From Polyangiaceae bacterium (GTDB taxonomy: Bacteria > Myxococcota_A > Polyangia > Polyangiales > Polyangiaceae): a stretch of 64,000 bases of DNA. Each line of letters opens with the position of its first letter. Position 1 is the first letter of the stretch. The notes beneath the pieces are model-generated. The model made no database searches and was not told where the DNA came from. It worked only from the letters and a program-made list of their open reading frames with translations. The stretch is from the NCBI GenBank assembly GCA_050290545.1, contig JBNKHV010000211.1:13463-77462 (forward strand). The letters run 5' to 3'. The position numbers and the translations under genes were made by a program. Shown here piece by piece: positions 4,680-51,272 of this stretch.

Positions 4680-5696
4680 TCATGTCTCCGAACTGTGCTC
4701 CTCGTCCTCCACCTCTTCGGGGCTGACATAGGTCTGCCCGACGTAGGCGGTGAAGCGACGTCGCTTCGTTTCGTCGGGTGCTCCGTGCGCTTGATTGTGC
4801 TGCTCGACGCGCTGTCGCAAGTCCACGGCTTGGGCACGCACGCGCTTCAAGAAGCCCGCCACTTCGTCGTGCAGGGGGTGATCGTCGGACACGTCGAAGC
4901 AGTAGGTGCTACCTCCGACCCAATCATCCGCGGACGAGCGCGTCTGCGCCGATTGAACCTTGCGACAAATCGCGGTGACGAGCGCTTGATAGTGGTCGAA
5001 GACGGCGGCCTCCCAGCCCTGCCGATCGCCAACAGGGATCAAGTAGTGGCTCGATTCGTAGCGCGCGGTCCCTTCGGCCTCCGAGACCTGGGCGCGACCG
5101 TCGGCGACCAACTGAGCGAGTGCCGCCTCCAGTGCCAGCTTGGGAGCGGGCACGGTTTCGTTCAGCGCCTGCGCATTGATGGGGCCGAAGCGATGGATCG
5201 CCACCCATAGCAGCGCAGCCAGACGCTCCTGATCGTCCGGGTCTTGGTGGGGTCGATCCTCTTCGGTGGTTGCCCGGTAACTCGTCGCATCACCTCGACC
5301 CGTACGCGTCAACAGCTGAGACTCCACGAGATCCGTCAACACTGCGCGCACCAGGGCGCTGTCGTCCCCGCTGAATCGCTGCAGCACCCGGGCCCGTAGC
5401 ACGGGTCCATGCTCCTGCACGAAGGCGAACACTGCTTCCCAGATCGACTGACCGCGGAAGGTTGCACTCTCCGACAGACGTTGAACGCGGTTGTGATAAG
5501 TGCGGAGCGCGAGACCGAACATGTCCGCGATCACCTTGTTACCGAGGCCCTGCTGTTTGAGCTCCTGAACCAGGCTGGTGAACACCTGATTGGCGGTACG
5601 CGCCAGCGGTGCACGAGTGCCCCCCGCCGTCGCCAACTGAGCGATCAGCACGGTGGTTTGGCGAACAATCGCGTCGATGAGGAGCGGGACATCCAT
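4680..5696 (-). CDS. putative DNA-binding protein with N-terminal Fis-type HTH (paralog of 39582-40568)
   Basis: 338-aa ORF. The N-terminal segment ADMFGLALRTYHNRVQRL matches the Fis-family HTH pattern (LGxSRxTLYRKLK-like). Additional helix-rich segments resemble winged-helix modules. Clear paralog further along the window sharing LATAGG, ADMFGL.LR.Y, WEAAVFDH, GGSTY and LRQRV..HN.AH blocks. Confidence 0.7.
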   Translation of the reverse strand: MDVPLLIDAIVRQTTVLIAQLATAGGTRAPLARTANQVFTSLVQELKQQGLGNKVIADMFGLALRTYHNRVQRLSESATFRGQSIWEAVFAFVQEHGPVLRARVLQRFSGDDSALVRAVLTDLVESQLLTRTGRGDATSYRATTEEDRPHQDPDDQERLAALLWVAIHRFGPINAQALNETVPAPKLALEAALAQLVADGRAQVSEAEGTARYESSHYLIPVGDRQGWEAAVFDHYQALVTAICRKVQSAQTRSSADDWVGGSTYCFDVSDDHPLHDEVAGFLKRVRAQAVDLRQRVEQHNQAHGAPDETKRRRFTAYVGQTYVSPEEVEDEEHSSET

Positions 5697-5832
5697 GGGC
5701 GGGGCACAGCCGAAGAGAATTACGCGCCCGAGTCACCTCGGACAGCGCTCGGGCTAGGCTCGAAGACTATGGGGCCCGCGCCTCACTCGGGAGTGAAAAA
5801 ACTGGCACGGCCACGGGGCCAGGTGCGGTGTC

Positions 5833-6354
5833 TCAGCCCGCTTTGGCGCACTGGCGCTCGTGCTCGACACGCATCGACTCGACCAGAGCGTCGAGTTCGC
5901 GTTCCGAGACGGTGGCCCGCTCGGTCGCACCGCCGCCGTCCAATCCGGATACCCAACGGCTGCTCTCGCTGACCGTCGAGAATATCTTCTGTGGGTACGG
6001 GTATCTGGCGACGAGCGAGATCAACGTCAGCGCCGAACGCACGGCTGCTGCCGCGAAACCAGTGCCTTCGACGACGTAGGAGACACCCCGGACCTTGTCG
6101 TTGTGGCGTGTCATCACTTTGCGAATTTCCGCCTTCGCTTCTTCCGATGGCGCGGGGGCCACTCGAGAAATCACGGTGTAAACCACGAGACTTCCACAGA
6201 GGCGTACGATCCTATCCGCCTCTGCTGCCCACGCAGCGAGGTAGATCGCCGAAGGTGGAGCCTTGGTGAACGTCACGATCACATCTCCAAGGGTTCGGAC
6301 GCAGTGGTCGTCATCGATGTAGACAGGTTCCGACGGATGCAGTTCGGTGCGCAT
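5833..6354 (-). CDS. hypothetical protein (173 aa)
   Basis: Clean ORF with coding-like composition, same strand as and upstream of the Fis-HTH gene (137-bp gap). No recognisable motif. Confidence 0.5.
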   Translation of the reverse strand: MRTELHPSEPVYIDDDHCVRTLGDVIVTFTKAPPSAIYLAAWAAEADRIVRLCGSLVVYTVISRVAPAPSEEAKAEIRKVMTRHNDKVRGVSYVVEGTGFAAAAVRSALTLISLVARYPYPQKIFSTVSESSRWVSGLDGGGATERATVSERELDALVESMRVEHERQCAKAG

Positions 6355-6485
6355 TGGATTGCTCCCCAGACGTATACGGCCCCTGGGGCGCGGGACTTAA
6401 ATGGGTCCTCCACCCGGGCACCCAGGCAACGGCTGCAAGACGAAGAGACGGGCGCCGAGCCCCGGGCGAACGCTCGAGCCAGTTG

Positions 6486-7808
6486 CTAGAGCGATGAGAG
6501 GAAACTCCACACTTCCTCGGGCATCCACGACGAGTTCTGTCCCGCGTCGTTGGGCAGTGGTGTGTGACCTCCATCGTAGGGGCACCACATGACGGGGTAT
6601 TCTTCCGCACACCCCTCGTACTGGGTGCACAGGTGCCCACCCGTGGGGGCGGCTGGTAGCGTCTCGACGTTGCAACCTGCCGCAACGGCGAATACTTCGG
6701 TCTGTCCCAGTTGACCTCCGCCACCACTTTCTTGTTGGCCCAGTGAGCCGAAGAACGGAATGGGCTCGCAGGTGGCGGGCGCAGCGATACCCCCGGCAGA
6801 GTGCGCGACTGCGGCAAGGAACACTCCCGGTCGCTGGCAGGCGAGCTCTCGCACCATGGCGCCCCCCTGACTGAAGCCCTGCACGACGACGCGCGCCGTG
6901 TCGATGCACAGATCGGCTTTCACCTGCTCCAAAATGTCGTCCACGAAAGTGATGTCGGTGTCGATGGACCAGCTTTGATCGACAGCTTCCGGCGCGATGA
7001 AGATCGTGCTTCCTTCGGACAGCTCATACAACCCGAGAAACGCCGGGTTGCCAGCGATGTTGGCAGGTGTGTTCCCGAAGCCGTGAAACCCCAAAATGAG
7101 CTGGTATGGGCGAGTTCTGTCGTAGTTCTCCGGCATGCGAAGCACGTAGCGCCGGGCCGTGCCACCGCTCATGACGGTGTTGTAGTTGTACATGTTGGTG
7201 GAGGGACTGTTCTGCAGCGTGGGCTCCGTACCGCAGCCCGACGATGTCGTCGACTCCTCCGGTTGCCCTTCAGGGACAGCCCCACCGACACCTTCTGGCA
7301 TTTCGTCGCCGGGAGCGCCAGCGGTGCCTTCCGGAGAATCGCCAGCTGTGCCACCTGCTCCTGCCACACCCTCCGGCGCAAGCGGAGTCGTGTCTGGATC
7401 TACCGCGCTCGGCTCGTCGGCGGCGCCCGCGGCATTCTCGCCAGCTTCGGCGTCGTTGGTCCCGTTCGTGGTGTCGGGCGCGCTTTGGGCTTCAGGTTCA
7501 CTGCCGTTCGTCGTGGGACTGTCGGACCCTGCCGCTCCGCCTGCCGTGGAAGTGCCTGGGCTCGACGGGCCCGCAGGCGCATCCGACCCTGCTGAACTCG
7601 CGCCCGCAGGCGCGGAAGCACTGACCGCGGCAGCGTTGACGCCACCACTCGAACCCATGGGCGTCGCGCCTCCCGCTCCAGCGGAGCTATCGGCGGCGTC
7701 GTCAGACGCGCACGCGAAGGCAAGTGTCGTCGGCAGTGCGGTGAGTGCTGCGAGCGCGACACGCTGCCAGCGATGCGTTCCTGAGAATGAAGGCTTGACG
7801 GGATACAT
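6486..7808 (-). CDS. secreted esterase lipoprotein, PHB-depolymerase/LpqC-like alpha/beta hydrolase
   Basis: Signal plus lipobox (LAFAC). A long Ala/Gly/Ser/Pro/Glu low-complexity linker precedes a C-terminal catalytic domain with LILGFHGFGN and a GxSxG nucleophile motif VVQGFSQGGAM, as in the PHB depolymerase / esterase_phd family. Confidence 0.8.
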   Translation of the reverse strand: MYPVKPSFSGTHRWQRVALAALTALPTTLAFACASDDAADSSAGAGGATPMGSSGGVNAAAVSASAPAGASSAGSDAPAGPSSPGTSTAGGAAGSDSPTTNGSEPEAQSAPDTTNGTNDAEAGENAAGAADEPSAVDPDTTPLAPEGVAGAGGTAGDSPEGTAGAPGDEMPEGVGGAVPEGQPEESTTSSGCGTEPTLQNSPSTNMYNYNTVMSGGTARRYVLRMPENYDRTRPYQLILGFHGFGNTPANIAGNPAFLGLYELSEGSTIFIAPEAVDQSWSIDTDITFVDDILEQVKADLCIDTARVVVQGFSQGGAMVRELACQRPGVFLAAVAHSAGGIAAPATCEPIPFFGSLGQQESGGGGQLGQTEVFAVAAGCNVETLPAAPTGGHLCTQYEGCAEEYPVMWCPYDGGHTPLPNDAGQNSSWMPEEVWSFLSSL

Positions 7809-8351
7809 GAGTCTCGACCTCGAGATGATTCATTGCAATGAGTGGCGCGTTTGGGGTTTACGACGGGGACGGGCAGAGTCCGGAATTTAGCATGCCAATA
7901 GGGGCGTTACGACTACCTGCGGTCCGACTGCTGCGTTCGCAACGGATCTTTCGCTCTGCCAATCCCGCGTGTCGAGCCGACAACCGTCATTGGACAACAT
8001 GCTGTCTTCCGTTTGGCGACTGAGCTAGACGCGTCTCGGGGGGGGCGTGAGCTTAGGTGGCGGGGCTCTCCAGTGGTCCGAGCAAGCCGCCTACGCGACA
8101 AACGTCGTTTCCATGCTGGCACACGCACGAAGTGTACGCTTACACAAATCCGATGCCCATTTGCGCGTCGACGCACGATACGACGGCGGGAGACAAGGGG
8201 AACGCCCGTCCAAAAATGCTCGAAGAAGACCGCGAAGGGCGTCAATCCACCAAACAGCGGCCGAGCTGCTGCTGGACGGGGTTGCGAGTTGTTGCGGGAT
8301 TGACTACTCGCAGGAGCTGTATTCTCCTAACACCGAGGGGCATCGAAGCGC

Positions 8352-10205
8352 ATGGTCAATACCGCTCCGTCTCAGTCTCAGTTCCACGACGCCGGCCGCT
8401 GGCCTCCGAGTCATCGCAGGCTGATCACGTCAAAGCTGGAAGCGCTGGCCACCGCTGCCGGTATTGAGCACATGCTTCCGAATGCGTTGGCGGCGCTGGA
8501 TGTCCTCGCAATGCCGTGGTTGGATTGGCCGGCGAACGGACGAACGCCTTGGGCATCGGATCTGACGGACGACGGCACGCCGCTGGAGTTCTCCATCAGT
8601 TACGACAGTCAGACCCCCGCGTTGCGCCTACTGACCGAGTCACAAGGTCCGGGTCGTGATCCGGCATCGAGTTGGAGCAATGGCCTGGAAGTGAACCGGA
8701 GACTTGCCTCCGACTTTGGTGCCGACCTGGAAGCCTTCGAGTGCGTGAGCCCATTGTTCACTCCAGCCTCTGAAGATTCGGGTTTTGCCATGTGGCATGG
8801 CGCGGTGCTCCAAGCTGATGGCCCTCCAGCGTTCAAGGTATATCTCAATCCGCGCCGTCATGGTCCGGAGCAGGCCCGTTCAGTCGTGGACGAAGCCCTG
8901 CAACGGTTGAAGCTGACGTCGGCTCAGCGTTTGGTGAGGGAGCTTCCCGTCGAATGGGCCACCTTCTACTTCTCGCTGGATCTCGGCTCGGCATTGGGCG
9001 GGCGGGCAAAGGTCTACCTATGCTCACCGAGCTCCACTCCGGCGTCGCTCGCCGCGGAATTGGACGCCTTGGGTCTTGCGCCTGCAGCGGAAGTAGAGAG
9101 CTGGTTGGCTCGGTTGTTGCGCGACCGGTCACCCCTGGAAAGTCGGCCAATACAGATGTGCTTGGCGTTTCGCTCTGGTCGGGACCTGCCGGAGCTCACT
9201 TTGCACGTTCCCGTGCGCAGTTACGTGAGTCACGACGCGGAGGCTCTGCATCTCGCTTGCCAGTGGTTGAGGCCCCACGACGCGGCAGCATTGACGGCAG
9301 GGGTCCAGGCCATGGCTCAGCGCCCGCTCGAAAGTGGTCGCTCCTTGATCAGCTACGTCTCTCTTCGTCCGCGGCCCGATCACCTGGGCGTGACGGTTTA
9401 TCTATCGCCGCAGCTCTACGCCGTTCCCCCGCCGAGGTGCGTGTCACTGGACAACTCGGTTAAGAGTAGCTCCTACGTGCGCGAGCTCGGCCCCAAGGCG
9501 CGAGGAGGAAGCACCCGGACGCTCCGCGCTCTGACCGATGAGATTGCGCGATGCAAAGAGCGATTGAGTCGTAAGCCGTTTCTTCGGCGGGTTCGACACG
9601 AGGGTACGCTGGCGGAAGCCAAAGGTGTCGTACGGCGGATGGCTTTCTGGGTGATGGGATTTCAGGATATCCTGCGCCTAGTGACGCGTTTCACGACGGA
9701 GCCTACGCTCACCCGCTTGGCTTGCACGCACGAAGCGGAGGACCGTGGCCACGACCACTGGTTCCTGCATGACCTCGAGCAACTCGGCTTGGCCGTGTCG
9801 CTGTCGGACGCCTTCGGCGACGACTCGGAAGTCGCGCGAGACACTGTCTACGGCCTGATCGCAGATGTGGTCAAAGCAGAGGACGATCGTGCCCGGCTGT
9901 GTGTCGTGCTTTCGCTGGAAGCTGCCGGTGTGGAGTACTTCGCGGCAACGATTGCCTTCCTGCAGCGTGTGGGAGTCGGAGACGGGTTGTTGTACTATGC
10001 CCGCTCCCACCAGACAGTCGAAGCCAATCACGACGTGTTCGAAGAGGATAAGCAGGCGGAGCTCGCGGCAATGCCTGTTTCAGAGACGGCATTCGAAGAG
10101 TGTCTACGAGTCATTCACCGCACTTTCCGGGCAATGGAGGTACTCGGAGAAGAGCTGTACGGCTGGCTCGAACCAGAGGTAGAAGGCGCGGGAGACGCCT
10201 CATGA
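8352..10205 (+). CDS. fusion protein: DMATS-type (ABBA-fold) aromatic prenyltransferase domain plus C-terminal heme-oxygenase-like (diiron-oxidase-type) domain
   Basis: N-terminal ~380 aa carry repeated K-x-Y-L strand-end motifs (KVYLNP, KVYLCSP, TVYLSPQLY) like the Lys/Tyr barrel residues of DMATS indole prenyltransferases. C-terminal ~220 aa are helical with clustered metal-ligand-like residues (HEAEDRGHDHWFLHDLE, then SHQTVEANHDVFEED), as in HO-like diiron enzymes / the 'iron-containing redox enzyme family'. Its stop overlaps the next start (ATGA at 10202-10205). Confidence 0.7.
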   Translation: MVNTAPSQSQFHDAGRWPPSHRRLITSKLEALATAAGIEHMLPNALAALDVLAMPWLDWPANGRTPWASDLTDDGTPLEFSISYDSQTPALRLLTESQGPGRDPASSWSNGLEVNRRLASDFGADLEAFECVSPLFTPASEDSGFAMWHGAVLQADGPPAFKVYLNPRRHGPEQARSVVDEALQRLKLTSAQRLVRELPVEWATFYFSLDLGSALGGRAKVYLCSPSSTPASLAAELDALGLAPAAEVESWLARLLRDRSPLESRPIQMCLAFRSGRDLPELTLHVPVRSYVSHDAEALHLACQWLRPHDAAALTAGVQAMAQRPLESGRSLISYVSLRPRPDHLGVTVYLSPQLYAVPPPRCVSLDNSVKSSSYVRELGPKARGGSTRTLRALTDEIARCKERLSRKPFLRRVRHEGTLAEAKGVVRRMAFWVMGFQDILRLVTRFTTEPTLTRLACTHEAEDRGHDHWFLHDLEQLGLAVSLSDAFGDDSEVARDTVYGLIADVVKAEDDRARLCVVLSLEAAGVEYFAATIAFLQRVGVGDGLLYYARSHQTVEANHDVFEEDKQAELAAMPVSETAFEECLRVIHRTFRAMEVLGEELYGWLEPEVEGAGDAS

Positions 10206-11575
10206 GCGACGGGCGTTCGGAAAGTCGGCCCATCGCCGAACTGATCCCCAATGGGCCGCCCACTGAAGTTGGAGACTTCGGGGGGATCATTCGAGGGAGG
10301 GCGCTCGGCACGGTCGCGCCACGCAACGCCGAAGAGTTGCGCTCGTTGGTGCGTCTGGCTCGAGGACGTGGTGTCGGTCTGACGGCGAGAGGACTGGGCA
10401 GCAGTCAGAGTGGGCAAGCCGTGGCTGACGAGTGCGTTCAAGTGTCGTTCGAAGGGCTGCGAGCGGTAGGGAGTGTTCAAGCGACGAGCACCGTCGTGCG
10501 TTGTGAGGCAGGGGCAACGTTCGAGGACGTGCTGCGTGAGACGCTGGCGGTGGGCAAGATGCCCGCGGTCGTGCCGCTGAATCCAGACTTGTCTGTCGGT
10601 GGCGTGTTATCCGCTGGTGGTCTTGGCAGTTCGAGCCATCATCACGGGTTCGCCGCCTGCTGCGTGGAAGAGCTGACGGTCGTGTTGGGCGACGGCAGTT
10701 GCGTGGTTGCCAGCAGTAGCCAGAACAGAGACGTCTACGATTGCGTACTGGGCGGATTGGGTCGCTATGGTCTGATTGCAGAGGTTGCGTTGCGGCTAGT
10801 TCCAGTGCCCCCCCAACTCGTGACAACGACTCTGCTCTACGAGGACTGCGAGTCGATGCTGAACGATCAGCTGGTCCTCTCCGCCAAGTCCGAGGTGTTG
10901 CATCTCGAGGGGGTGTCGGCAGGCTGCGTTTTGGGTATGCGGAAGGCGGATGATGGCCGGCCGGTACCTCTTCGTCGTTGGTCCTACGCGCTTCACTTCA
11001 CGGTGGAAAGTGAAGCGCGAGCCGAGGAGATTCTCGGCGCACAGAATCACGTCGCGGTGTTGAACACCCAGACTGACAGTTCCGAAGCATACCTGCGGCG
11101 CTACCAACCGCGTTTTCGGATGATGCGGGCCAGCGGCGCCTGGGAGCAGACCCATCCATGGTTCGAGGCATTGGTCAGCCCGGATGGAGCGCGCGAGTTG
11201 CTGACGGCGGCTCAATCAATGCCGCCTTTCTTTGGCGACATGATCCGGGTCGCGACGGTTCGCCACGAGGCGATCCCGGCAGGAATCGCGGTTCCGACGC
11301 GGAACTCCATCAGTGCGTCCCACTTTTTCTCGGTCGCGGTTCTCCCGGCGGGAATTCCTCAGTCCCTGGTCGACTTCGCCAAAGCTGCGTTGCGAGCGCT
11401 CGACGACCGGTTGAGCGACGTTGGTGGGAAACGCTACCTTTCCGGTTGGCTTTGCGAGCCGACGGTCGATACTTGGCGGCGGCACTACGGGTCGGAGTTT
11501 GAGCGGCTCGAGGAGCTGCAACGACGCTACAATCCGGGGAACGTTCTGCGCTCGCGGTTGAACTTCCTCATTTGA
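10202..11575 (+). CDS. FAD-linked oxidase (VAO/PCMH-type FAD-binding domain)
   Basis: Starts MSDGRSESRP at the ATG overlapping the previous stop. N-terminal FAD-binding fold motifs (RNAEELRSLVRLARGRGVGLTARGLGSSQSGQA) and a C-terminal tail (RYNPGNVLRSRLNF) typical of cytokinin-dehydrogenase / BBE-like FAD oxidases. The track ORF from 10100 carries an N-terminal extension in a region that overlaps the upstream gene. Confidence 0.85.
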   Translation: MSDGRSESRPIAELIPNGPPTEVGDFGGIIRGRALGTVAPRNAEELRSLVRLARGRGVGLTARGLGSSQSGQAVADECVQVSFEGLRAVGSVQATSTVVRCEAGATFEDVLRETLAVGKMPAVVPLNPDLSVGGVLSAGGLGSSSHHHGFAACCVEELTVVLGDGSCVVASSSQNRDVYDCVLGGLGRYGLIAEVALRLVPVPPQLVTTTLLYEDCESMLNDQLVLSAKSEVLHLEGVSAGCVLGMRKADDGRPVPLRRWSYALHFTVESEARAEEILGAQNHVAVLNTQTDSSEAYLRRYQPRFRMMRASGAWEQTHPWFEALVSPDGARELLTAAQSMPPFFGDMIRVATVRHEAIPAGIAVPTRNSISASHFFSVAVLPAGIPQSLVDFAKAALRALDDRLSDVGGKRYLSGWLCEPTVDTWRRHYGSEFERLEELQRRYNPGNVLRSRLNFLI

Positions 11576-11595
11576 CCAATCGTAAATGGAGCAAG

Positions 11596-12429
11596 ATGTC
11601 CCACGAACACAAGGTGCAGCAATTCTACGACAGCGCTCGGCACTGCTATGAGCGCATCATGGGGGAATACTGGCATCACGCCGATCCTGAGGCGGTTGCC
11701 GCGGGGCTACCGCGTTCACGCGCGTGTGAGATTCTCAGCGAGCGTGTCGTGACGCTGTGCGGTATCGAGCCGGGTCATCGAGTCTTGGATTTTGGATCTG
11801 GGATTGGCGGTCCAACGCTGCACATGGCTCGCCACACTGGGGCGTCGTTCGTCGGCGTCTGTAACAACGACCGTCTGACTCAGCGCGCTCGTGAAGCCGC
11901 GAGCACCCGTGGAGCTTCCGAAAGCGTGACGTTCCAGACTTTGGGCGACGAGGAGTACAAGCAGCTGCCATTCGACGACGAGAGCTTCGACGCGATCGTG
12001 TTCATGGAGTCCGTCTGCCACATTCCGGACAAGGCTCAGCTGTTCCGAGAGTTCGCGCGGGTCGTGAAACCTGGATGTCGCATCGGAGGGATGGACTGGA
12101 TCCAGCGTCCGTGGGGTGAGGTCCAGCGTCCAGAACAAGTCCAGGAGTTCATTGGACCCATCTGTGAGCATGTCGCCATCCCCTGGCTGGGAAGTGTCGA
12201 TGACTATGCAAATCTGATGCGGGATGCAGGGTTCCGAGTTGCCGTCGCGCGTGACCTCGTTGCCGGGCAAAAGTGTTGGGGTGCCGTGCAGGACGACGAG
12301 AACCCCGAGTGGCTCAACTATGACGGGCCCGACTTCGAGATGTTTCGACGAGGTGAAGAGGCGCTCGTCGCCGCGCGGAACGCCGGGGTCTTCTCGATAG
12401 GCACTTGGATCGCAAGAAAACCCGTCTGA
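11596..12429 (+). CDS. class I SAM-dependent methyltransferase
   Basis: Motif I VLDFGSGIGG, post-motif acidic residue, motif II-like DAIVFMESVCH. The track start at 11572 is a TTG overlapping the previous stop. The ATG at 11596 (MSHEHK) is equally possible. Confidence 0.85.
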   Translation: MSHEHKVQQFYDSARHCYERIMGEYWHHADPEAVAAGLPRSRACEILSERVVTLCGIEPGHRVLDFGSGIGGPTLHMARHTGASFVGVCNNDRLTQRAREAASTRGASESVTFQTLGDEEYKQLPFDDESFDAIVFMESVCHIPDKAQLFREFARVVKPGCRIGGMDWIQRPWGEVQRPEQVQEFIGPICEHVAIPWLGSVDDYANLMRDAGFRVAVARDLVAGQKCWGAVQDDENPEWLNYDGPDFEMFRRGEEALVAARNAGVFSIGTWIARKPV

Positions 12430-12438
12430 CTTGCTCGC

Positions 12439-14622
12439 TCAGAAGCGAAACTCCGACACGAAGACGCCACTCTCGATGACGTCGGCAGCGGGACCTGGAT
12501 CCAGATCCGTCGGGGCCGTGAGCTTTCCGACGAGCAGAAAGCCGTCGGGGCTCTCGACCAACGTCGTGGTGTTCGATCCAGCTCCGAACTGAAAGCGGTA
12601 GGCCGAGGTGCCATCCGCGTCGTAGCCAAGCACGGAGCCCGATTCGGTGAGTACCACGCCGCCGCCGGGGGCTGCCCCGAGGCCGATGAAGACCTCGTCG
12701 GGCAGCAAGTTCACGCCAATGGACGTGCCGTCCTCTCGCAGGTGCAACAGCGCAGCGGCGCTCGTGCCGTACACAAGCAGACGCTCTTCAGGAAAGTCGG
12801 GAGGAGCCAGCGACGTGCGCACGCTTCCGCCCAGCATGACGACGCCATCTGAAGTGGTCACGAGCGAAGAGCCGAAATCGGGCCAGTACATGCGATGCAC
12901 TCCTGCGGGGTAGGTCCACGTTCCCTGCTCGAAGGTTCCTCCCGCAGTCCAGACGTCCGTAGCTGATGCCGCCAGATCTGCGACGGCTCCCTTGCGAACA
13001 TCGCCCCAAAGGTAGTTCCCGTCGGGGTCGAGCTTGACGAGAAAGCCGGTGATCGCGTGCTCCATTTCTCGTTCATCAACGCCCGCAGTGGGGTCGATGT
13101 CCTTGGCTCCGAGGTTGAACGACCCGGCGCAGTAAACGTTGCCGCTACCGTCGCTGACCACGTCGAGTCCGTTAGTCGCTCTGGGCGGCCACACTCGCGC
13201 CCAGAGCAGTTCGCCGTCCCCAGCATACCTCGCGACATACGCTTGCTCGTTCGAGTTCTCGATGCCGACTTCCACGTTGCCCGGTCCCGGGTCGAAGTCG
13301 ATCACGCCGGACATCGTCCCGGTGATGAGGACCGAGCCCGACGCACCCGGGGCCACGTCACTCACGTCGATCGCCGCATTGCCGATGGCGGTGGACCAGC
13401 CGTAGTTGCCATCTGCGTCGAGCTTGCTGACGTAGGCCATACCGCCGACTCCGCCGTCGCGGATGTCGGACGTGGCCGTGGGATCGAGATCGACCTCACC
13501 TCTGAAGGTGCCCGCCAACCAAGTGACGTCGTCCGACGCTCGGGCAACCACGGGCGGGTCCGCCACGTCGAGGCGCAGTGTCCCGACGTATTCGGGCGTA
13601 CAACTGCCGCCGAACTCCGTTTCGCAATCCGGTGACGTGCGATCGCAATTGGCGTAGCCAGTGTTGCAGGTGGGCTGTCCACAGGAGTTGGGATCCGTGC
13701 AATCCAGGCTCGCGTTTTCGGCGCCACAGTCGGCGCGCCCGCAAGCTCCGCAGTTTTTCGGTGTGTTGAGCGGTTCACACTCGAGGCCCCCGGAGCAGCG
13801 TTCGTGTCCGGGATAGCAGTCGCCATGCACGCATTCCCCTTGCACGCACTGGACTTGATTGTAGTTGCTCTCGCAGGGGGTGTCGCAAGCACCGCAGTGC
13901 AGCAGACTCGTTGCCAGGTTCACACAGCCGTCGCAGAAGTCCGGGGTCTGCTCGATGCAAGCCGTCGCGCACACGAACTGACCGTCTGACTTGGTGCAGA
14001 CCGGCGAGGCAGGTGGACAGGCGTCGCCACACGCTCCGCAAGCGGCCGCCTCTCCGAGGTAGGTTTCGCAACCGCTCTGCAAGTCCTCACTGCAGTGAGC
14101 GAACCCCTCGGCACAACTTCCCGACGGAAACACACAACGACCGTCCTGACAAATGGTCTCCGAGCCAGCGACCACGTTGGGTAGCTCGTTGCAGGTGATT
14201 CCACCGCAGACTCCGGGCGGCTCGGACATCGGGCCCATCATCTCGCCGCCCACGGACGTCATGGGAGTAGGAGCCTCAGTAGCCATCGTCGTGTCCATCG
14301 CTGTTTCACCACTGCCGGCTGGTGTCGTGACAGTGCCGTCAGTGGTCACTCCCTGGTTGGAGTCAGGCGTATCCGGGTCGCGACCTGCTGTGCCGCCGTC
14401 GCTTACGGCGCTAACGTTTTCGTCGGATGCCGTTTCGCCGCTTTCGTCTGTCGTGGCTGCTGCGCTCGATCCCGTGGAGGGCGCGCTGGAGCTCGTCCCG
14501 TCTCCCGTACCTCGTTCGGATGGGGCTTCGTCCGCCGTTCGGCCTCCGCCGTGACATTGCACGAGTCCCGTCGAAAGAGCTGCGAGGGAGAGCAAGCAGA
14601 GGGTGCGCAGTGGACACGTCAT
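12439..14622 (-). CDS. secreted Cys-rich protein with SBBP-type beta-propeller repeats
   Basis: Start ATG at 14622 gives MTCPLRTLCLLSLAALSTGLVQC (signal peptide). A Thr/Ser/Gly-rich linker is followed by a ~230-aa stretch with about 40 Cys (CGACGDAC, CGACDTPC, CGACGRADC). The C-terminal half has repeated G(T/S)F...(I/V)DFDPGPG motifs characteristic of SBBP beta-propeller repeats. The track ORF to 14982 is an upstream extension without a signal peptide. Confidence 0.75.
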   Translation of the reverse strand: MTCPLRTLCLLSLAALSTGLVQCHGGGRTADEAPSERGTGDGTSSSAPSTGSSAAATTDESGETASDENVSAVSDGGTAGRDPDTPDSNQGVTTDGTVTTPAGSGETAMDTTMATEAPTPMTSVGGEMMGPMSEPPGVCGGITCNELPNVVAGSETICQDGRCVFPSGSCAEGFAHCSEDLQSGCETYLGEAAACGACGDACPPASPVCTKSDGQFVCATACIEQTPDFCDGCVNLATSLLHCGACDTPCESNYNQVQCVQGECVHGDCYPGHERCSGGLECEPLNTPKNCGACGRADCGAENASLDCTDPNSCGQPTCNTGYANCDRTSPDCETEFGGSCTPEYVGTLRLDVADPPVVARASDDVTWLAGTFRGEVDLDPTATSDIRDGGVGGMAYVSKLDADGNYGWSTAIGNAAIDVSDVAPGASGSVLITGTMSGVIDFDPGPGNVEVGIENSNEQAYVARYAGDGELLWARVWPPRATNGLDVVSDGSGNVYCAGSFNLGAKDIDPTAGVDEREMEHAITGFLVKLDPDGNYLWGDVRKGAVADLAASATDVWTAGGTFEQGTWTYPAGVHRMYWPDFGSSLVTTSDGVVMLGGSVRTSLAPPDFPEERLLVYGTSAAALLHLREDGTSIGVNLLPDEVFIGLGAAPGGGVVLTESGSVLGYDADGTSAYRFQFGAGSNTTTLVESPDGFLLVGKLTAPTDLDPGPAADVIESGVFVSEFRF

Positions 14623-14887
14623 TGGAGCGAATTGCTGTCGTTTGCTCGGCGCGAAGGGCGGGGTACTGTGCACGGGGAGTTGCGGGCGCTCGTCCGATGG
14701 CAGACGGTGGCGCAAGCCTCGAATCATGGTCGCTGGGGGCGGGTCTGCGCATGCAAAAAGTTGCTCCCAGAAGCAGAGTAGGAGCGCCTCACCCCTGTCG
14801 GGACGTCGCCGCTCCGAAGCAGCGCACGACCGTGAACGCTTCCAGCGGCAAGCGGACGTGCTCGCGCCAATCTGGTAGTGTGCCGCC

Positions 14888-16418
14888 GATGAATTGGGGA
14901 AAGCTCGCACGTCGGGGCACGTTGCCCGCGATTGTGCCCGCACTCGTCGTGGCGCTGGCGTGCAAAGGGTCGGATAGCTCACGCTCGAAGGAACACGCCG
15001 CTGATCCGGTCGCCACAGGTAGCGACGTAAGCGCTCCCGCGCCCGAGATGGTGCCGACCGTGGCGTCCGCCGAAACTGCTCCCACCCACGACGCGCCGCA
15101 TCGAGCGGCGAGCCGCGAGTTGACGGAGCTTGCCGTCAAGCGCTTGCTCGACGATTGGCTGGTCGCGCAAAATGAACACTCGTTCGAGAGCTACGAGAAG
15201 GCGTACGCGAGTCGGTTCACGGGTATCAAGCGCACTGGTTCCAAAACCTCCAAGATGGATCGCCGACACTGGCTTTTGGACCGCCGCCAGATGTTTCCGC
15301 GCATCGTGAGCGTGCGTGCCAAAGACCCACAGATCGCGTTGCAGTCAAAGACGGCTAGTCTGCGCTTCGAACAGTACTGGGCCTCGAAGAACTACGAAGA
15401 CCGAGGCACGAAGCAAATGACGATCGTGCTCGAAGATGGGCTGCCACGCATTGCCCGCGAGGAGTTGCTGGAGAGTCGCGCCATCGGCGCGCAGAGCACG
15501 AGGCAGACGCCGGTGCATCTCGTGTATCGCTTCGGTGGGCAAGACTATCTGGTCGTCGGAGACGGGGCCAAGCTCGTCAAACCCGAGCTGCGTGAAGCAG
15601 CAGGCACGTTCGTGGCGTTCGGCGACGTCGACCTCAGCGACGCGCGCGCCATGGCAGATTGGCAGGGCCGAAGTCTGAGGGTGTTTTCTGTTTCGGGTAA
15701 ACATTGCACTGCGGAAGGCGGCAGGGTCGTCGGCATCGCGTTGGCTCTGCCTCACTTCTCGGAGCAAGGGCGCTGGGATACGCAGAAGGTTCCGCCCGCC
15801 GAGCGGGCCCAGATCATCGCCGAGATGGGCAGGCCGCAATACGCCGTCGAAATCGATGCGGTGAAAGGCAACTGTGGTGACTTGGTGTTAGGACAAGCTG
15901 CGAGTCAGCCTGTGACGAAGGTCGCGGAAGAAACATCGGACGAAGCCGCCAAACGAGTAGCCCTGACGGTGTTCGAGAACCTGCCGAAGTACCAAGCACA
16001 GCAGAAGGACCTCGACCAGTTCATCGCGGAGTCGGAGAAGGAAGCGGGTCACTCACAACCCAAGACGCCTTGGACGGAGTATTCACCGGTGATTCGCTCT
16101 CAACGCTCCTTCCGTCTCGGTGACGAGCACTACGTGTGGCTCAGCTACGACGCTGGCCCGGGTTGCGGCGGTTGGGATGGCGGTTTGGCGATGCTGTTTC
16201 GGGTTCACCCCGGAAAGGAGCTTCAAGTAACGCCTATCCCTCCGCCCAAGGGGGCGTTCTACCCCACGGGCGACGTCACTTCCTTGACCGACGTCAACGC
16301 AGATGGGCGCGTGGAGCTGTTGCTGCACCCGACCTTTTCCTCGGGAACACTGCTGCTCGACGAATCCCTGCAACCCGTCGAACAGGTCAACTACGTGAAT
16401 TTCGATTGTCCTTGCTGA
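14888..16418 (+). CDS. hypothetical lipoprotein
   Basis: ATG at 14888 gives MNWGKLARRGTLPAIVPALVVALACKGSDSS (signal plus lipobox LALAC). It is divergent from the SBBP gene. The track ORF from 14427 adds a non-protein-like upstream extension that overlaps the divergent gene's 5' end. Confidence 0.7.
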
Positions 16419-18243: not shown

Positions 18244-21200
18244 TCAGAGCTCCCGACAATCCCCGAAGAACTCACGGCGACCGAAAGAATGGGGCCGCGC
18301 CTGCTTGATCAGGAGCGAGCGGTCGCCGTCGCTCAGCTTGAACTCGATCTCCATCGCGAACCAGCGTGCCTCCTGCTCGGGGTCCAGCAAGGGCCGAAAC
18401 CACTCGTGCACACCGCGTAGCGCGCAGCTGACCGCGTCCGCCTCGGCGGCACTCAATACGCGATCCGGGCTGCCACTGAGTGTGGCGACCAGACTGCTTT
18501 CGCCGTGGTAGACGAGGCGCGGGGTGCGACCCCAGCGATAGACGAACTGCTCGGTGCTGACTCCTGGGGCCGGATTGGTCACGCTGGCCTCTCCGGCTTG
18601 CGCGTTGATGTAGTAGATGTCTCCGCGATCCGGATCGAGCACGTTGCGGCTCACGGCAACGCCGTTGGCCTCCTCCGACAGGGAGGCGGGGTGGACCAGC
18701 ACCCCCATCGCGATGCTCTCGTCATCGATGTTGGCGAAGGCCCGCTCGTCGTAGGCGCGCAGGTTCCACAGGCTCGCCCACACCGTTCGCAACGCGTCGT
18801 CGACGCGGCGCTCGGGATCGTCTAGCTCGGCACTGACCGAGGTGTACAAGCCAGCGCCATTGAAGTTCGGCAGGTCTTCTGTGTTGCTACTGCTGCGGAA
18901 ACGCACCCGGCGGTTTCCGAAGCGCTCCCTCACCGCCTCCTCCACATCGCTCAGCAGTTCGTCGTCGACGGGCGTCTGCATGATGAGTTCTCGCACGGCG
19001 GCCAGGCCGAGTGCCCGCGTCTTCGGATCGGCGACGAATCCGGCGTCTTGCTTCAGCTCATCGAGCAGTTCATCTGCCCCGCTGGCCTTCAGGTGCTCGA
19101 GGGAGTGCACCACGGGAATGGCGAAGGGCTGGGCCGGGATCGTCGGGCGCACCGGCTCGCTACAGTAGGAGACGGTGATGTCGATGCGGGCGAGTTCGGC
19201 CATTTGCGCGGCCTTGGCGCCGATCGCCGGCAAGCTCGACAAGTCGTGATCGCTGAGAGGTTGAACGCCCCGTAGCTTCTTGTCGAGACGCGGGGCGACT
19301 GCGGGGCCTTGCTGAACGCGCTGTTGCCAGAACGCGGCCGCTTCTTCGGGGTCAGCCAGTTCGACGTCGACGCCGGTCGCGGATACTTCCAGCCGCACCA
19401 ACTCGTCCAAGTAGGGTGCGAGGCGCTCACGGGCGTTTGCCAGACTGGCGTTCGGCGTGCCGCGATTTTGGCTCAGTACGTTGACGTGCGCCAAGGGCGT
19501 TTGAAAGGCTTCGGTGATCAGACCGCCGACCAAGGGAATGTCGTTGGGTACGTCATCCGTGATGACGACGACGTTCGAACCGAGTGCTGCGTCCTCGAGT
19601 GCAGACGCAGTGACGAAGCGCAGGGTGCCGTAGGCGATGCCTTCCGTCAGTGGCTGATAGGTGACGTTCATGAACGGCGCGTTGGGCGCCACGATGGGAA
19701 GCGTGCCCTCGATTTCACGGACGCGCATGACTTGAGCGTCACCTTGCGGGCGCAGTACCCAACGTCGAGGGTTCCAGGTGTGTTCGATGGTCGAGTAGTA
19801 GCCATCGCGCATCGCGGCTGCATCGATGGAATCACCGGTCGAAAACTCGACCGACGCGATACCTGCTCCAGCATGTTCGACCAACGTGCCGAGGTGAAAG
19901 CGCCGACCGCTCGTGGCGCGATATTCCGCGTTCGAGAAGTCGACCCAGCCTTGATAGAACTCGTCGTACTGGACCGGGTCGCAGCGATCGAGCTCGGGCT
20001 CCTCGTAAATCCGCTCGCGCACGAACGTGTAGTGTAGCGGCCAGCGCGCTGCGGCCAGAAGGTGCACGAGCCCCGGTGCCTCGAAGTCGGCGACGAACTT
20101 CACGGGCGCAATCCCGAGTTGGCTGGCGCCAGCGGCGAGCTTTTCGAAGTCGGCGGGTGTTCGCAGCGCTCGGAGGCGGTCACCGATGTCGCGCTCGGCG
20201 ACCACCTCACAACCATTGGCGGCTGCTGGCGTTGCGTTGCGGCAGAAGCGCGACAAAACGGAGTCGTCTGGCACGCGGGCGAGCGTCGCCCCTTCTGGCC
20301 AGCGCATGAAGTCGACCCGGTCCAATACCTCGCCCTCATCGAAGAGCGTCAATACTCCCTCGAACTCGGGATCCGACTCGAGCTCACTCAGTACATCGCT
20401 CGGAACCTCGAGCGCAACACGTTCACCAGGCGCTAGCGTCTCGTCGGGGGGCAGCACGAGGTTCGTGCCATCTGCTGTCGTCGGCCACGGTAGAGACGGC
20501 TTGTGGGGGCTCAGGTTCAGCTGAAACTCCTCCAGAGACACCTCTGACTGGCCAGCGTTGAGCAGTTCGATGAACGCCGGCTCGTTCGTCCCGGGTCGCA
20601 GCGCGAGTTCGCTGATCCAAAGTGTCTTGGCGGTTGGGGGAAACGGGTCGGGTAACTCGTAGGCTTCGAATTCGACGTCGGACTCGAGACTCGGTGGTGG
20701 AGGCGGCGCGCAAGTGGTTGCGTTGCGCCGCCCCGGTGATGCGTAGCGACACGATTCGAAGTTGCCGGCGGCATCTGGAAAGCGCGCCAGCACCTGGTTT
20801 TGTCCGAGCGGCGGGATCACGACCGCGTCAGTGACGAAGCCGTCCGTTTCGAGCCACACTTCGTCGCCCGAGGAGCTGAGTTTGAAGGGGAGGTGGTGTT
20901 CACCTTGTTCTGGTTCGTCGTCGGCAAACACGAGCAGGCGTTGCCCTGGGTTCAACGTGCCGTTGGGCAGACGAGACGTCGCGCCCGATGCGTCCGCGAT
21001 TCGGTAGTCCGACAGCTCCAATGGCGCCTCGCCTGCGTTCACCAATTCCAGCCAGTCGTCCGCCTCGCCCAATTCGTCGATCCAGGCGCCGTCGTTGCTG
21101 GCCATCAATTCGTTGATGAGCAAAGGCCCTGCGCCGGGTGAACCTGCATCCGACCGACCCGCGTCGCTGTTTGAGGGGGAGGTCGGGGTGGTGGGTGGGG

Positions 21201-21450
21201 CTCCGGCGTCCGACACCTCCGGTGGCGTCGGGGACGACGCAGCGTCGCGCTCTGGGCCCGCGTCCGCCGAGTCTGGCATCAGTACCTTCAAGGGCACGCT
21301 TGGGGCGCGGCCGCCGTCCTGCTCCCGTTCACCCGCGCTGTCACGGTTTGTGCCACACGCAGTGAATGCCGTGGCACAGAACGCCGCCAGCGCGAAGCTC
21401 GCCCAGCAGCCGTGATTCCCAAGCGATAGTGGGGACTTCTCGCGCTTCAT
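18244..21450 (-). CDS. large lipoprotein: 2x lamin-tail domain (LTD) plus PEP-utilizing-enzyme mobile domain plus PPDK_N-type ATP/PEP-binding domain
   Basis: ATG at 21450 gives MKREKSPLSLGNHGCWASFALAAFCATAFTACG (lipobox). Two LTD-like repeats (LLINELMASNDGAWIDELGEADDWLELVNAGEAPLELSDYRI and LWISELALRPGTNEPAFIELLNAG). A His-containing segment TPLAHVNVLSQNRGTPNA resembles the phosphohistidine swivel domain. Then RVRFRSSSNTEDLPNFNGAGLYTSV matches the PPDK_N / PEP-synthase ATP-grasp signature (RSSAxxEDLPxxSFAGQ). Confidence 0.8.
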   Translation of the reverse strand: MKREKSPLSLGNHGCWASFALAAFCATAFTACGTNRDSAGEREQDGGRAPSVPLKVLMPDSADAGPERDAASSPTPPEVSDAGAPPTTPTSPSNSDAGRSDAGSPGAGPLLINELMASNDGAWIDELGEADDWLELVNAGEAPLELSDYRIADASGATSRLPNGTLNPGQRLLVFADDEPEQGEHHLPFKLSSSGDEVWLETDGFVTDAVVIPPLGQNQVLARFPDAAGNFESCRYASPGRRNATTCAPPPPPSLESDVEFEAYELPDPFPPTAKTLWISELALRPGTNEPAFIELLNAGQSEVSLEEFQLNLSPHKPSLPWPTTADGTNLVLPPDETLAPGERVALEVPSDVLSELESDPEFEGVLTLFDEGEVLDRVDFMRWPEGATLARVPDDSVLSRFCRNATPAAANGCEVVAERDIGDRLRALRTPADFEKLAAGASQLGIAPVKFVADFEAPGLVHLLAAARWPLHYTFVRERIYEEPELDRCDPVQYDEFYQGWVDFSNAEYRATSGRRFHLGTLVEHAGAGIASVEFSTGDSIDAAAMRDGYYSTIEHTWNPRRWVLRPQGDAQVMRVREIEGTLPIVAPNAPFMNVTYQPLTEGIAYGTLRFVTASALEDAALGSNVVVITDDVPNDIPLVGGLITEAFQTPLAHVNVLSQNRGTPNASLANARERLAPYLDELVRLEVSATGVDVELADPEEAAAFWQQRVQQGPAVAPRLDKKLRGVQPLSDHDLSSLPAIGAKAAQMAELARIDITVSYCSEPVRPTIPAQPFAIPVVHSLEHLKASGADELLDELKQDAGFVADPKTRALGLAAVRELIMQTPVDDELLSDVEEAVRERFGNRRVRFRSSSNTEDLPNFNGAGLYTSVSAELDDPERRVDDALRTVWASLWNLRAYDERAFANIDDESIAMGVLVHPASLSEEANGVAVSRNVLDPDRGDIYYINAQAGEASVTNPAPGVSTEQFVYRWGRTPRLVYHGESSLVATLSGSPDRVLSAAEADAVSCALRGVHEWFRPLLDPEQEARWFAMEIEFKLSDGDRSLLIKQARPHSFGRREFFGDCREL

Positions 21451-21575
21451 GTGGGGAGGGAGCGACGTGGATTCAGACATCGAATGGTCCATCTACAAGC
21501 ACCGTGCCAAGCGGGTCCTGTTCGTGGGGGGCGCCGATGCGCAAGAGTGTTGACGGACAGCTAGAGGTGGCGGGG

Positions 21576-51000: not shown

Positions 51001-51105
51001 CCCTTCACAGGCCCAGCTGGTGAACAGGCCTAGGCAGACGGCGGCTAAGTGAACGCGGGCGCGCACAGTGCTGCGCTTGCCCGCAGTGGCATTGGATCCC
51101 GACAT
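48085..51105 (-). CDS. multicopper oxidase (laccase-like) lipoprotein with a large Cys-rich insertion
   Basis: ATG at 51105 gives MSGSNATAGKRSTVRARVHLAAVCLGLFTSWACEG (lipobox). All four MCO copper-ligand motifs are present: HFHGTHV, HWYHAHKHG, HPFHIHINPF, HCHILGHEDRGMM. About 230 aa with more than 30 Cys lie between motifs 3 and 4. The nucleotide sequence also has a GGN run encoding GGGGGNGGGNG. Confidence 0.85.
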   Translation of the reverse strand: MSGSNATAGKRSTVRARVHLAAVCLGLFTSWACEGSDGAEAPGDSGLAEDASSDIDTQDAAGPAEVADASVVDPKNDAGPEPKDATTPVVMADAAVVDPSDAGVKPGERCNPNAMVPELCAPEGPNQSLNVELDVVYERFDDVMRFYLPGTNFGQDGEPDTVCPDIYMKPMPMTLRTYRGGLAGEAPLPASFPGPTLRLKIGDTLNLQFANLLSVTDGASENDGTGHNCAEGSPEADVSPNCFHGFNDTNIHFHGTHVAPDTNGQLQFLESGAPNPEFRLVDNVYVIATPPDAETSPPSPNCKGIACWKFPGDEVPPYALHFEESQIPGTHWYHAHKHGSTAIQMLNGLAGALIIEGDFAGIPEIEDANEQVLVLQQIDDRKPRLLEPQDSEEFQRQAPPELSVNGVITPTLTMKSGEVQRWRFISGTQQASASFKGMELQDVDGKPYVPPPGTECEDGVPQAGSYKRPGVYQIAQDGIEFLDERWQDVLCNNDKYLDIAFNSGNRADFLIVAPAVEERTELLLRKSDVIGGGGGNGGGNGRGADNGSGNTSSGDMPSCDSLPEDPGTFLANSPSGVDVPLLKLVIEPPDPMAPPPVDSLPRNLRTFDQLPEALQTALVPVSDEELTDPQTVEFQMNPGQAQSPEFYIDNKKFCADRLDQCMALGTAEEWTITNYTAVSHPFHIHINPFFITDWLDANTYFTGPSDPDNACFTECDESLQICSEECDGDFAEACLTGCTNEHMTCKGACPLPEDVGKLETSSPLRRWQDTIGLPLAYIPPLEGGDVCGPKSAEQDAGVQSSCGQVCAAANMIWNGSESCEQADAKKAGCKDPNVSCVCGCQARDACVEPLGSDADAERDCPAATEATDATWNGQWSCDDAAVEDSGCVVGSQCVCGRAPNPAPIREGFVKVRHRFLDYDGDFVIHCHILGHEDRGMMQRIGVRASLEECELAEDELWGEGCAAESVCAETCQSMNVDLSVPLPDMCQSSTIGKDGTSTWSRKCLEP

Positions 51106-51272
51106 GAATGCCTCTTCACCCCGTCGGCGAAAAGAGTCCATTACAGGACATTTCACGGCCTTGCGGGCCGCCGCTGTTCAGCAGGAATACGGCCCGCGGG
51201 GCGGTAATCCCATCGCCTGGGCAGCTAGGCCCGGCGATGGTTGAGCTCGGTCTTGGCGCAGCCTCGAGCGGC

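Follow-up and report, generated by a model that had tools for sequence, protein, structure and literature searches.

A fused DMATS and AetD-like diiron oxidase in a putative three-gene operon: a candidate route to prenylated indoles in a Polyangiaceae bacterium

Layout of the three-gene locus

We analysed a stretch of 64,000 nucleotides (nt) from a Polyangiaceae bacterium (contig JBNKHV010000211.1, positions 13,463 to 77,462 of the forward strand), referred to below as the window and numbered from its first letter. Three consecutive genes on its plus strand encode a fusion of a DMATS-type tryptophan (Trp) prenyltransferase with a heme-oxygenase-like (HO-like) diiron oxidase (HDO), a flavin adenine dinucleotide (FAD)-linked oxidase of the cytokinin dehydrogenase (CKX) clade, and an S-adenosylmethionine (SAM)-dependent methyltransferase. 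An earlier account made without database searches, here called the sequence-only reading, had described three plus-strand open reading frames (ORFs), an ATGA overlap, a 543-bp divergent spacer and a convergent downstream gene, and all of these were found in place. The features of the locus are:

7809-8351, no strand assigned: divergent intergenic region of 543 bp, presumed (putative) promoter or regulatory region of the operon
8352-10205, plus strand: gene 1, 617 amino acids (aa), DMATS-HDO fusion
8352-9431, plus strand: N-terminal domain of gene 1 (about aa 1-360), DMATS-type tryptophan dimethylallyltransferase, 5-DMATS-like
9444-9512, plus strand: inter-domain linker of gene 1 (aa 365-387), predicted local distance difference test score (pLDDT) below 50 in the AlphaFold2 model, length-variable and gap-rich in the family alignment
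9513-10205, plus strand: C-terminal domain of gene 1 (aa 388-617), AetD-like HDO
10202-11575, plus strand: gene 2, 457 aa from its ATG, FAD-linked oxidase of the CKX clade
11596-12429, plus strand: gene 3, 277 aa (285 aa if read from TTG 11572), class I SAM-dependent methyltransferase
12439-14982, minus strand: convergent gene, separated from the gene 3 stop by a 9-nt gap

Gene 2 is translationally coupled to gene 1 through the overlap of stop and start codons in the ATGA at 10202-10205 (CTC-ATGA-GC at 10199-10207), and a GGAG lies 7 nt upstream of its start. Gene 3 had been placed by the sequence-only reading directly at the stop of gene 2. A TTG at 11572 does overlap this TGA stop, but the ATG at 11596 is the more probable start because it has a well-spaced GGAG (at 11588, 5 nt before it) and because public gene calls for the window sequence and for gene 3 orthologues use it. 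Gene 3 therefore most likely begins at ATG 11596 and not at TTG 11572, leaving a 20-nt gap after the gene 2 stop.

Codon-position GC content indicated that all three genes are coding, with GC at third codon positions (GC3) of 0.69-0.70, slightly below many other genes of the window (0.75-0.80). The intergenic region 7809-8351 contained no ORF with family support, and its repeats were short, imperfect and unconvincing. An Rfam scan of this region and of the whole 64-kb window returned zero matches at the gathering threshold (no tRNA, no riboswitch). Lying on one strand, with coupled or near-coupled starts and co-localising across differing flanks, the three genes probably form an operon. As the sequence-only reading had stated, there is no nonribosomal peptide synthetase (NRPS) or polyketide synthase (PKS) core, none being present in any window ORF scanned.

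Domain identities and active-site residues

The four domain families that had been predicted each scored above their Pfam gathering thresholds. In gene 1, Trp_DMAT (PF11991) matched aa 60-312 with 49.5 bits against a cut-off of 25, and profile searches thus place the N-terminal domain in the DMATS family, in line with the predicted prenyltransferase. An AlphaFold2 model built with 15 family members as input (mean pLDDT 82.8) consists of an ABBA prenyltransferase barrel at residues 20-360, a disordered linker at 365-387 and an all-helical domain at 388-605. The best structural match of the DMATS domain was the 5-DMATS of Streptomyces coelicolor (SCO7467). Its top sequence and fold matches were 5-DMATS, 6-DMATS, PriB and IptA, all of which use free L-Trp, with CymD also scoring high. 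Residues E79, R92, K162/Y164, R218/K220/Y222, Y335 and Y350 are invariant in 15 fusions and identical in S. coelicolor 5-DMATS. From what is known of FgaPT2, we take E79 to be the catalytic Glu that hydrogen-bonds the indole NH, and the Arg, Lys and Tyr residues presumably bind the diphosphate. Judged by sequence, the domain is a divergent member of the DMATS-type aromatic prenyltransferases.

The position of prenylation was approached through residues known from 6-DMATS. In this enzyme the base is His329, and a V259Q/H329Y double mutant redirects prenylation to C5, according to a review of the Ostertag 2021 structures (PMC9355150). In an ungapped HMMER alignment, Gln268 and Tyr335 of the window protein occupy the V259 and H329 positions, and the same pair is found in 5-DMATS. 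Since Gln268/Tyr335 equal the C5-type pair, the DMATS domain probably prenylates free L-Trp at C5.

The C-terminal domain of gene 1 has the HO-like helical fold and was matched by Haem_oxygenas_2 (PF14518) at aa 426-561, with 29.9 bits against a cut-off of 28.9. AetD was its only sequence match in the PDB (E 2e-7); in a neighbour-joining tree the AetD branch is long and falls outside the clade of the fusions. AetD binds its metals through D76/H79, E140 and H172/E176/H179 and contacts its substrate through F44, F48 and Y167; F48 takes the place of an additional carboxylate that SznF-type HDOs have, and the carboxylate of the substrate is bound by Y167 (PMC11611611). All six ligands are intact in the window protein as D464/H467, E523 and H553/E557/H560, giving a 3-His/3-carboxylate pattern on core helices 1-3 (D-x2-H, E, H-x3-E-x2-H). 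The substrate contacts are also kept: W433 corresponds to F44 (aromatic stacking), F437 to F48 (auxiliary helix 2) and Y548 to Y167. Ligand and contact residues are conserved in 61 of the 66 relatives collected. Because Phe (F437) stands where other HDOs have a seventh carboxylate, Fe1 would be open for amino-acid chelation.

Two relatives of this domain have known products. AetD, the nitrile synthase of aetokthonotoxin biosynthesis, turns ring-substituted tryptophan into indole-3-carbonitrile (PMC11611611), while the skatole synthase SktA, a homologue that shares the ligand set of AetD, converts 5-bromo-Trp into skatole and cyanide (PMC11869266, PMC13108848). The known substrates of both are C5-substituted (bromine) tryptophans (PMC11611611, PMC11869266). 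At two second-sphere positions, where AetD has M139/A142 and SktA T139/T142, the window protein carries Leu522/Ala525; it is AetD-like there, in what is only a weak discriminator between the two. These residues suggest that the domain is equipped to work as an AetD/SktA-type diiron oxidase that chelates an amino acid and is triggered by its substrate. The O2-activating diiron-like domain of the sequence-only reading is thereby assigned to a catalytic HDO family with every metal ligand present, and its identity is sharpened to AetD/SktA-like, i.e. to Trp side-chain processing. We rejected a degenerate HO-like domain for the window protein, as all ligands are present. Degeneration does apply to a sister subfamily of DMATS-HDO proteins (L028, L029, L030, L031 and L036, at about 8001-9700 of each locus), in which the HO-like domain lacks the six ligands and the substrate Tyr and has apparently become a pseudo-enzyme. 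These genes are followed, after 270-630 nt, by a CKX-like oxidase that is more distantly related (24-26% identity).

Gene 2 matched FAD_binding_4 (77 bits) and, at its C-terminus, Cytokin-bind (30 bits). A profile of 20 HDO-associated oxidases aligned with plant CKX over its full length (profile positions 1-424; E 4e-64, 220 bits), and the next family, DprE1, reached 101 bits over the FAD domain only. An HPW motif is common to the gene 2 family and plant CKX. None of the 20 family members has the covalent-FAD His found in the GHS motif of CKX; their aligned motif reads G-x-S-Q-S-G-Q. The catalytic Asp of CKX (in WTDYL; presumably Asp169 in ZmCKX1) aligns to Leu126 within a conserved P-L-N-L-D-L-T-V-G-G motif, and a nearly invariant Asp129 nearby is out of register with it. 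As neither the covalent His nor the catalytic Asp is conserved, we rejected a true cytokinin dehydrogenase. The alignments indicate that gene 2 is of the CKX clade by descent and has a different active site. The predicted FAD oxidase stands as a FAD_binding_4 flavoenzyme, and its type is that of the CKX clade rather than of the berberine bridge enzyme (BBE).

Gene 3 gave 64 bits with Methyltransf_11, and Methyltransf_25, _23 and _31 also passed their cut-offs, which confirms the predicted SAM methyltransferase as class I of the Methyltransf_11 type. It contains the glycine-rich SAM motif LDFGSGIGG, and its best PDB relatives are the small-molecule methyltransferases RebM and MitM (E 1e-24).

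Distribution and domain fusions

Among 5.8 billion protein clusters, a word-indexed search recovered only 29 relatives of gene 1, of which about 15 are full-length fusions. When 185,579 species genomes were scanned, 201 relatives of either domain came up, and the locus counts given here come from the best 78 loci. About 21 species-level genomes contain the DMATS-HDO fusion; they carry labels such as Polyangiaceae, Sandaracinaceae, Myxococcales or 'Deltaproteobacteria'. A CKX-like oxidase (36-59% identical) directly follows the fusion in about 15 species-level metagenome-assembled genomes (MAGs) of Myxococcota with unrelated flanks, the extrapolated gap ranging from -22 to +40 nt. With the same genes together in many genomes and the flanks unrelated, the arrangement is far beyond chance. 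Homologues adjoin or are fused in related genomes, as expected from the sequence-only reading. Conservation of the trio as a set holds in part: fusion and FAD oxidase recur together in these roughly 15 MAGs, and the methyltransferase is absent from more distant fusions. An 85% identical gene 3 orthologue lies downstream of the fusion in L004, whose cluster is 60% identical, and a 71% identical one lies divergently upstream in L092, whose cluster is 48% identical. Further copies, at 51-59% identity, occur in the unfused DMATS/HDO clusters L037, L038, L049, L053 and L069. Retention of the methyltransferase despite rearrangement suggests that it is part of the pathway in the closest clade.

The domains have also been joined in other ways. 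In a Sorangium sp. MAG (L022:7821-11201), DMATS, HDO and FAD oxidase form one ORF of 1126 aa, and in a Polyangiaceae MAG (L042:9789-11816) an HDO-FAD fusion follows the DMATS gene; the junctions are in frame in both. The HDO family is small: an exhaustive HMMER search of the HDO domain against 1.84 billion representatives gave just 358 relatives, and 71 of these reached E<=1e-30. Its best 150 representatives included 35 DMATS-HDO, 4 HDO-FAD and 3 FAD-DMATS-HDO proteins, together with one DMATS-HDO-FAD and one HDO-DMATS protein. Because the three activities have been fused repeatedly and in different orders, there is strong evidence that they act on one pathway. Further natural fusions are P0050, P0037, P0109, P0139 and P0115. 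By size, the DMATS-HDO-FAD proteins have 1126 and 1080 aa, the HDO-FAD proteins about 675, the FAD-DMATS-HDO proteins about 1010-1070 and the HDO-DMATS protein 597 aa. Two candidates were set aside as relatives for their different architecture: P0019, in which a DMATS accompanies a FAD_binding_4 protein of an unrelated kind, and P0020, a DMATS fused to a non-HDO domain next to an Indigoidine_A gene. P0020 (L012/L013:8001-10720) is a 603-aa fusion in which the DMATS is C-terminal and the N-terminal stretch is unrelated to HDO; the Indigoidine_A gene that follows it is pseudouridine-5'-phosphate glycosidase-like.

Pairs of HDO and FAD oxidase lacking a prenyltransferase were found at L059, L074, L089, L055, L061, L067 and L071, several of them in Myxococcota. 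HDO and CKX-like oxidase thus seem to make up the deepest and tightest unit, even if some HDOs, AetD among them, have no oxidase partner. It is largely in myxobacteria that the DMATS would have been added to this unit, DMATS and HDO being paired in alphaproteobacterial MAGs as well; the methyltransferase would be an accessory that certain clades have.

Several of these loci have features of their own. In a cyanobacterium (L059:8001-10237), HDO and CKX-like oxidase are adjacent with an ATGA overlap, and a MOSC-domain gene lies divergently upstream. They are likewise adjacent, with no prenyltransferase, in the cultured Microtetraspora fusca NBRC 13915 (L074:1287-3399), and in an Eoetvoesiella MAG (L089:4890-8390) a p-hydroxybenzoate hydroxylase (PHBH)-type flavin monooxygenase precedes the pair. 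In the cultured Legionella sp. W05-934-2 (L083), which has no prenyltransferase at this locus, the oxidase lies upstream of the HDO, a few hundred bases away. Two Alphaproteobacteria MAGs of 41% GC (L053 and L069) hold an unfused HDO and DMATS cluster with no CKX-like oxidase. Their clusters also carry two cupins, an AMP-dependent ligase, a major facilitator superfamily (MFS) transporter and a FadL-type porin, and their methyltransferase is 53-59% identical to that of the window.

Proposed pathway, alternatives and known systems

On balance, we lean towards a self-contained three-gene operon that would make a small prenylated Trp-derived indole metabolite in four steps. The small stand-alone pathway to a prenylated indole or other aromatic compound that had been suggested before is supported by gene structure, domain identities, catalytic residues, synteny and fusions. 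From these observations we infer the substrate, the regiochemistry, the order of the steps and the chemistry of steps 2-4. In step 1, the DMATS domain would move a dimethylallyl group from dimethylallyl diphosphate (DMAPP) to the benzene ring of free L-Trp, probably at C5. In step 2, the fused HDO would bind the amino-acid end of the prenyl-Trp on Fe1 and, with O2, cleave its alanyl side chain or rearrange it, leaving a one-carbon C3 substituent of nitrile or aldehyde type and a C2 acid. The CKX-clade flavoenzyme, which is genetically tied to the diiron domain, would then act on the rearranged intermediate or product and oxidise a C-N bond or a benzylic C-H bond in it (step 3), and the methyltransferase would methylate the product (step 4). 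As the substrates of AetD and SktA are C5-substituted, a C5 prenyl group would take the place of their bromine as its steric counterpart.

How the HDO and the flavoenzyme might work together is suggested by the mechanism proposed for AetD. There, abstraction of a C-beta hydrogen leads to an aziridine that reopens with the nitrogen between C-alpha and C-beta (PMC11611611). N-hydroxylation follows and gives the nitrile and glycolate, with aldehyde and glyoxylate as a shunt (PMC11611611). The N-inserted intermediate, a secondary amine or imine adjoining an aromatic ring, belongs to the substrate class of CKX, which makes its interception by the flavoenzyme an attractive hypothesis. Tentatively, and with more doubt than conviction, we extend this to the family as a whole: the CKX-clade flavoprotein would be a dedicated partner of AetD-like HDOs that takes over the N-migrated amine or imine, which AetD deals with by itself, the two forming a so far unrecognised machine that turns ring-decorated tryptophans into undescribed C1-substituted indoles. 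Such a machine would range over Myxococcota, cyanobacteria, actinomycetes and proteobacteria, and the DMATS fusion of the window would then channel 5-dimethylallyl-Trp directly into HDO and flavoenzyme. If true, this would give the cytokinin-dehydrogenase fold a new catalytic role and AetD/SktA chemistry a third branch.

Several observations weigh against the four-step pathway or its parts. The NCBIfam DMATS model TIGR03429 scored 90.9, under its cut-off of 163.85. Gln268 is kept only within the subclade of the window, other fusions having Leu, and the C5 assignment therefore rests on two residues. The PF14518 score is marginal, barely over its cut-off. Identity of the HDO domain to AetD is just 21-23%, and AetD and SktA form different products from near-identical substrates, so the HDO product cannot be read from its sequence. 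Neither the covalent His nor the catalytic Asp of CKX is present in gene 2, whose chemistry is thus not fixed by its clade. HDO and FAD oxidase also pair without a DMATS, and some DMATS and HDO clusters (L053) have no FAD gene, which indicates that the flavoenzyme is not universally required. A scan for sigma-70-like promoters predicted none in 7809-8351, and the only terminator-like match in the scan lies on the minus strand, just beyond the stop of the convergent gene. The fusion occurs exclusively in MAGs and metagenome contigs.

In a rival explanation, the HDO might instead act as SktA does and make prenyl-skatole, cyanide and CO2. The flavoenzyme would next oxidise the 3-methyl group via a methylene-indolenine, and the resulting carbinol or aldehyde would be capped by the methyltransferase. 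Enzymes of the vanillyl-alcohol oxidase (VAO) family classically hydroxylate a benzylic methyl or alkyl group para to a heteroatom, in keeping with such a route. The FAD partner also occurs with prenyltransferase-free HDOs, and its substrate handle is for this reason probably the indole or C3 part. SktA, moreover, shares the ligand set and releases skatole and cyanide from 5-bromo-Trp (PMC11869266, PMC13108848). Against it, Leu522/Ala525 are AetD-like, albeit at weakly discriminating positions. We regard this outcome as unlikely. A similarly low probability attaches to a flavoenzyme that acts on the prenyl chain and not on the C3 substituent, turning the dimethylallyl group into a 1,3-diene or cyclising it oxidatively. 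CKX enzymes hold the isopentenyl chain over the flavin, and EasE of ergot biosynthesis reportedly has a proposed diene-forming role that would match the diene option. The combination of DMATS, methyltransferase, FAD oxidase and O2-activating enzyme parallels DmaW/EasF/EasE/EasC. Several fusion holders are Sandaracinaceae MAGs, and indiacens A and B of the myxobacterium Sandaracinus are 4-(3-methylbuta-1,3-dienyl)indoles (PMC4660955, PMC9306752), with a dienyl side chain such as the diene option would produce. Set against this, the same oxidase family is paired or fused with HDO at the seven prenyltransferase-free loci named above, the DMATS markers indicate C5 and not C4, the methyltransferase is not of EasF type and the oxidase not of BBE type. 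The indiacens have no C3 substituent, as the synthesis paper shows, and no cultured Sandaracinus genome was among the best 80 loci; we therefore dropped the idea that they are 3-formyl-4-dienylindole products of such a cluster, a structure to which a DMATS, aldehyde formation of the AetD kind and dehydrogenation by the FAD enzyme would have been suited.

A prenyl acceptor other than free L-Trp, such as a different aromatic amino acid, an indole derivative or a residue within a peptide, would lead to a different class of product but is very unlikely: the top matches 5-DMATS, 6-DMATS, PriB and IptA all take free L-Trp, the fused HDO retains the amino-acid-chelating site and aromatic stacking residues of AetD, and no NRPS, cyclodipeptide synthase or precursor of a ribosomally synthesised and post-translationally modified peptide (RiPP) was found among the nearby ORFs scanned. 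We give still less credence to a module of cytokinin type or of catabolism, for turnover of prenyl-adenine or breakdown of indole, or to neighbours with no shared function. The best characterised relatives of gene 2 are indeed cytokinin dehydrogenases and the flanking genes are hydrolases and hypotheticals, but gene 2 has other residues in place of the CKX catalytic Asp and covalent His, and it is partnered with a Trp prenyltransferase and with an AetD-like oxidase. Translational coupling, synteny across many genomes and repeated domain fusions argue against unrelated neighbours.

The remainder of the window offered some further observations. The convergent gene (12439-14982, minus strand) and an ORF on the opposite strand (14427-16418, plus strand) are both long and overlap by about 555 nt. 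The former is backed by public gene calls, with weak MXAN_6577-like Cys-rich and beta-propeller matches; the latter, which has no family match, may be spurious or have a later start. From about 5400 to 16400, the three genes and their immediate neighbours have a GC3 of 0.64-0.72, compared with 0.75-0.80 in most long window ORFs, and this stretch may mark a region of different origin. A 1082-aa protein at 18244-21492 (minus strand) joins lamin-tail domains to PPDK_N (phosphoenolpyruvate-utilising, ATP-grasp), an unusual architecture, and 48085-51177 encodes a multicopper-oxidase-like protein. The scanned window ORFs with family matches are mostly secreted-type hydrolases, leucine-rich repeat (LRR) and RCC1 repeat proteins and a TonB-dependent receptor, a gene content that would suit a degradative or predatory bacterium.

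A search of the full-text literature, with most subscription journals outside its scope, found no paper on DMATS or another prenyltransferase with HDO or AetD, or on HDO with cytokinin dehydrogenase, and the words 'prenyl', 'fusion' and 'fused' are absent from a 2026 HDO mini-review. Within that scope the system is, as had been supposed, potentially undescribed. What is new is the DMATS-HDO fusion with its CKX-clade partner; the component families and the pathway logic were already known. The product of the four-step pathway is probably an undescribed small prenylated indole compound, and the locus predicts a new class of such indoles from uncultured myxobacteria, made without NRPS or PKS. The locus also exposes a distinct branch of the AetD/SktA family in which the diiron domain is hard-wired to a Trp prenyltransferase and accompanied by a cytokinin-dehydrogenase-like flavoenzyme, and suggests that bacterial enzymes of the CKX clade serve a function unrelated to cytokinins. 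What decides between the AetD and SktA outcomes, nitrile or skatole plus cyanide, is an open question of the field (PMC13108848). The natural fusions are material for studying substrate channelling from the prenyltransferase barrel to the HDO, and the multi-domain ones would be ideal constructs for biochemistry. Being short and easily synthesised, the three-gene cassette is suited to heterologous expression. Taken as a prediction from sequence, the locus is a solid genome-mining lead.

Among known systems, the early ergot pathway has a similar inventory, with a Trp DMATS (DmaW), a methyltransferase (EasF), a FAD-linked oxidase (EasE) and an O2-activating metalloenzyme (EasC), and the window set is the same functionally. 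We nevertheless rejected homology, since Pfam and profile comparison place none of the three partner enzymes in the ergot families: the methyltransferase is Methyltransf_11 and not EasF, the oxidase belongs to the CKX clade and not BBE, the O2-activating enzyme is an HDO and not a catalase, and the DMATS markers are those of C5 and not C4. The plant enzymes ZmCKX1, ZmCKX4 and ZmCKX8 share with gene 2 the two-domain architecture of FAD_binding_4 and Cytokin-bind and the HPW motif. Unlike them, gene 2 is bacterial, has the GHS His and Asp169 replaced, and stands in the context of a Trp-processing HDO and not of purine metabolism.

The likeness to AetD and SktA, whose halogenase partners are AetF and SktB, extends to the heme-oxygenase-like diiron fold, the 3-His/3-carboxylate ligands with an open Fe1 and the aromatic, Phe and Tyr substrate contacts (W433, F437 and Y548 in the window). 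As in those systems, the benzene ring of Trp would be decorated first, here probably at C5, and the alanyl side chain oxidised next. The decoration differs: in the window it would be a prenyl group from the fused DMATS, in theirs it is a halogen from a separate flavin halogenase. No CKX-clade flavoenzyme is listed for the skt cluster, whereas the window has an adjacent one; to our knowledge, the aet cluster also has no such gene.

For the overall logic of the pathway, the closest precedent is the SCO7467/SCO7468 pair. In this type B cassette, 5-DMATS (SCO7467) and a flavin monooxygenase (SCO7468) give 5-dimethylallylindole-3-acetonitrile, while in the type A cassette IptA and a tryptophanase give 6-dimethylallylindole-3-carbaldehyde (PMC3617294). 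Like the window genes, these actinomycete cassettes are minimal, stand-alone bacterial systems in which a Trp DMATS is followed by one oxidative side-chain enzyme, and SCO7467 is structurally closest to the window DMATS and has the same Gln/Tyr regiochemistry markers. Their side-chain enzyme is an NADPH-dependent flavin monooxygenase or a pyridoxal phosphate (PLP)-dependent tryptophanase, where the window has a fused diiron HDO. The window further adds a CKX-like oxidase and a methyltransferase, and the hosts are Myxococcota and not actinomycetes.

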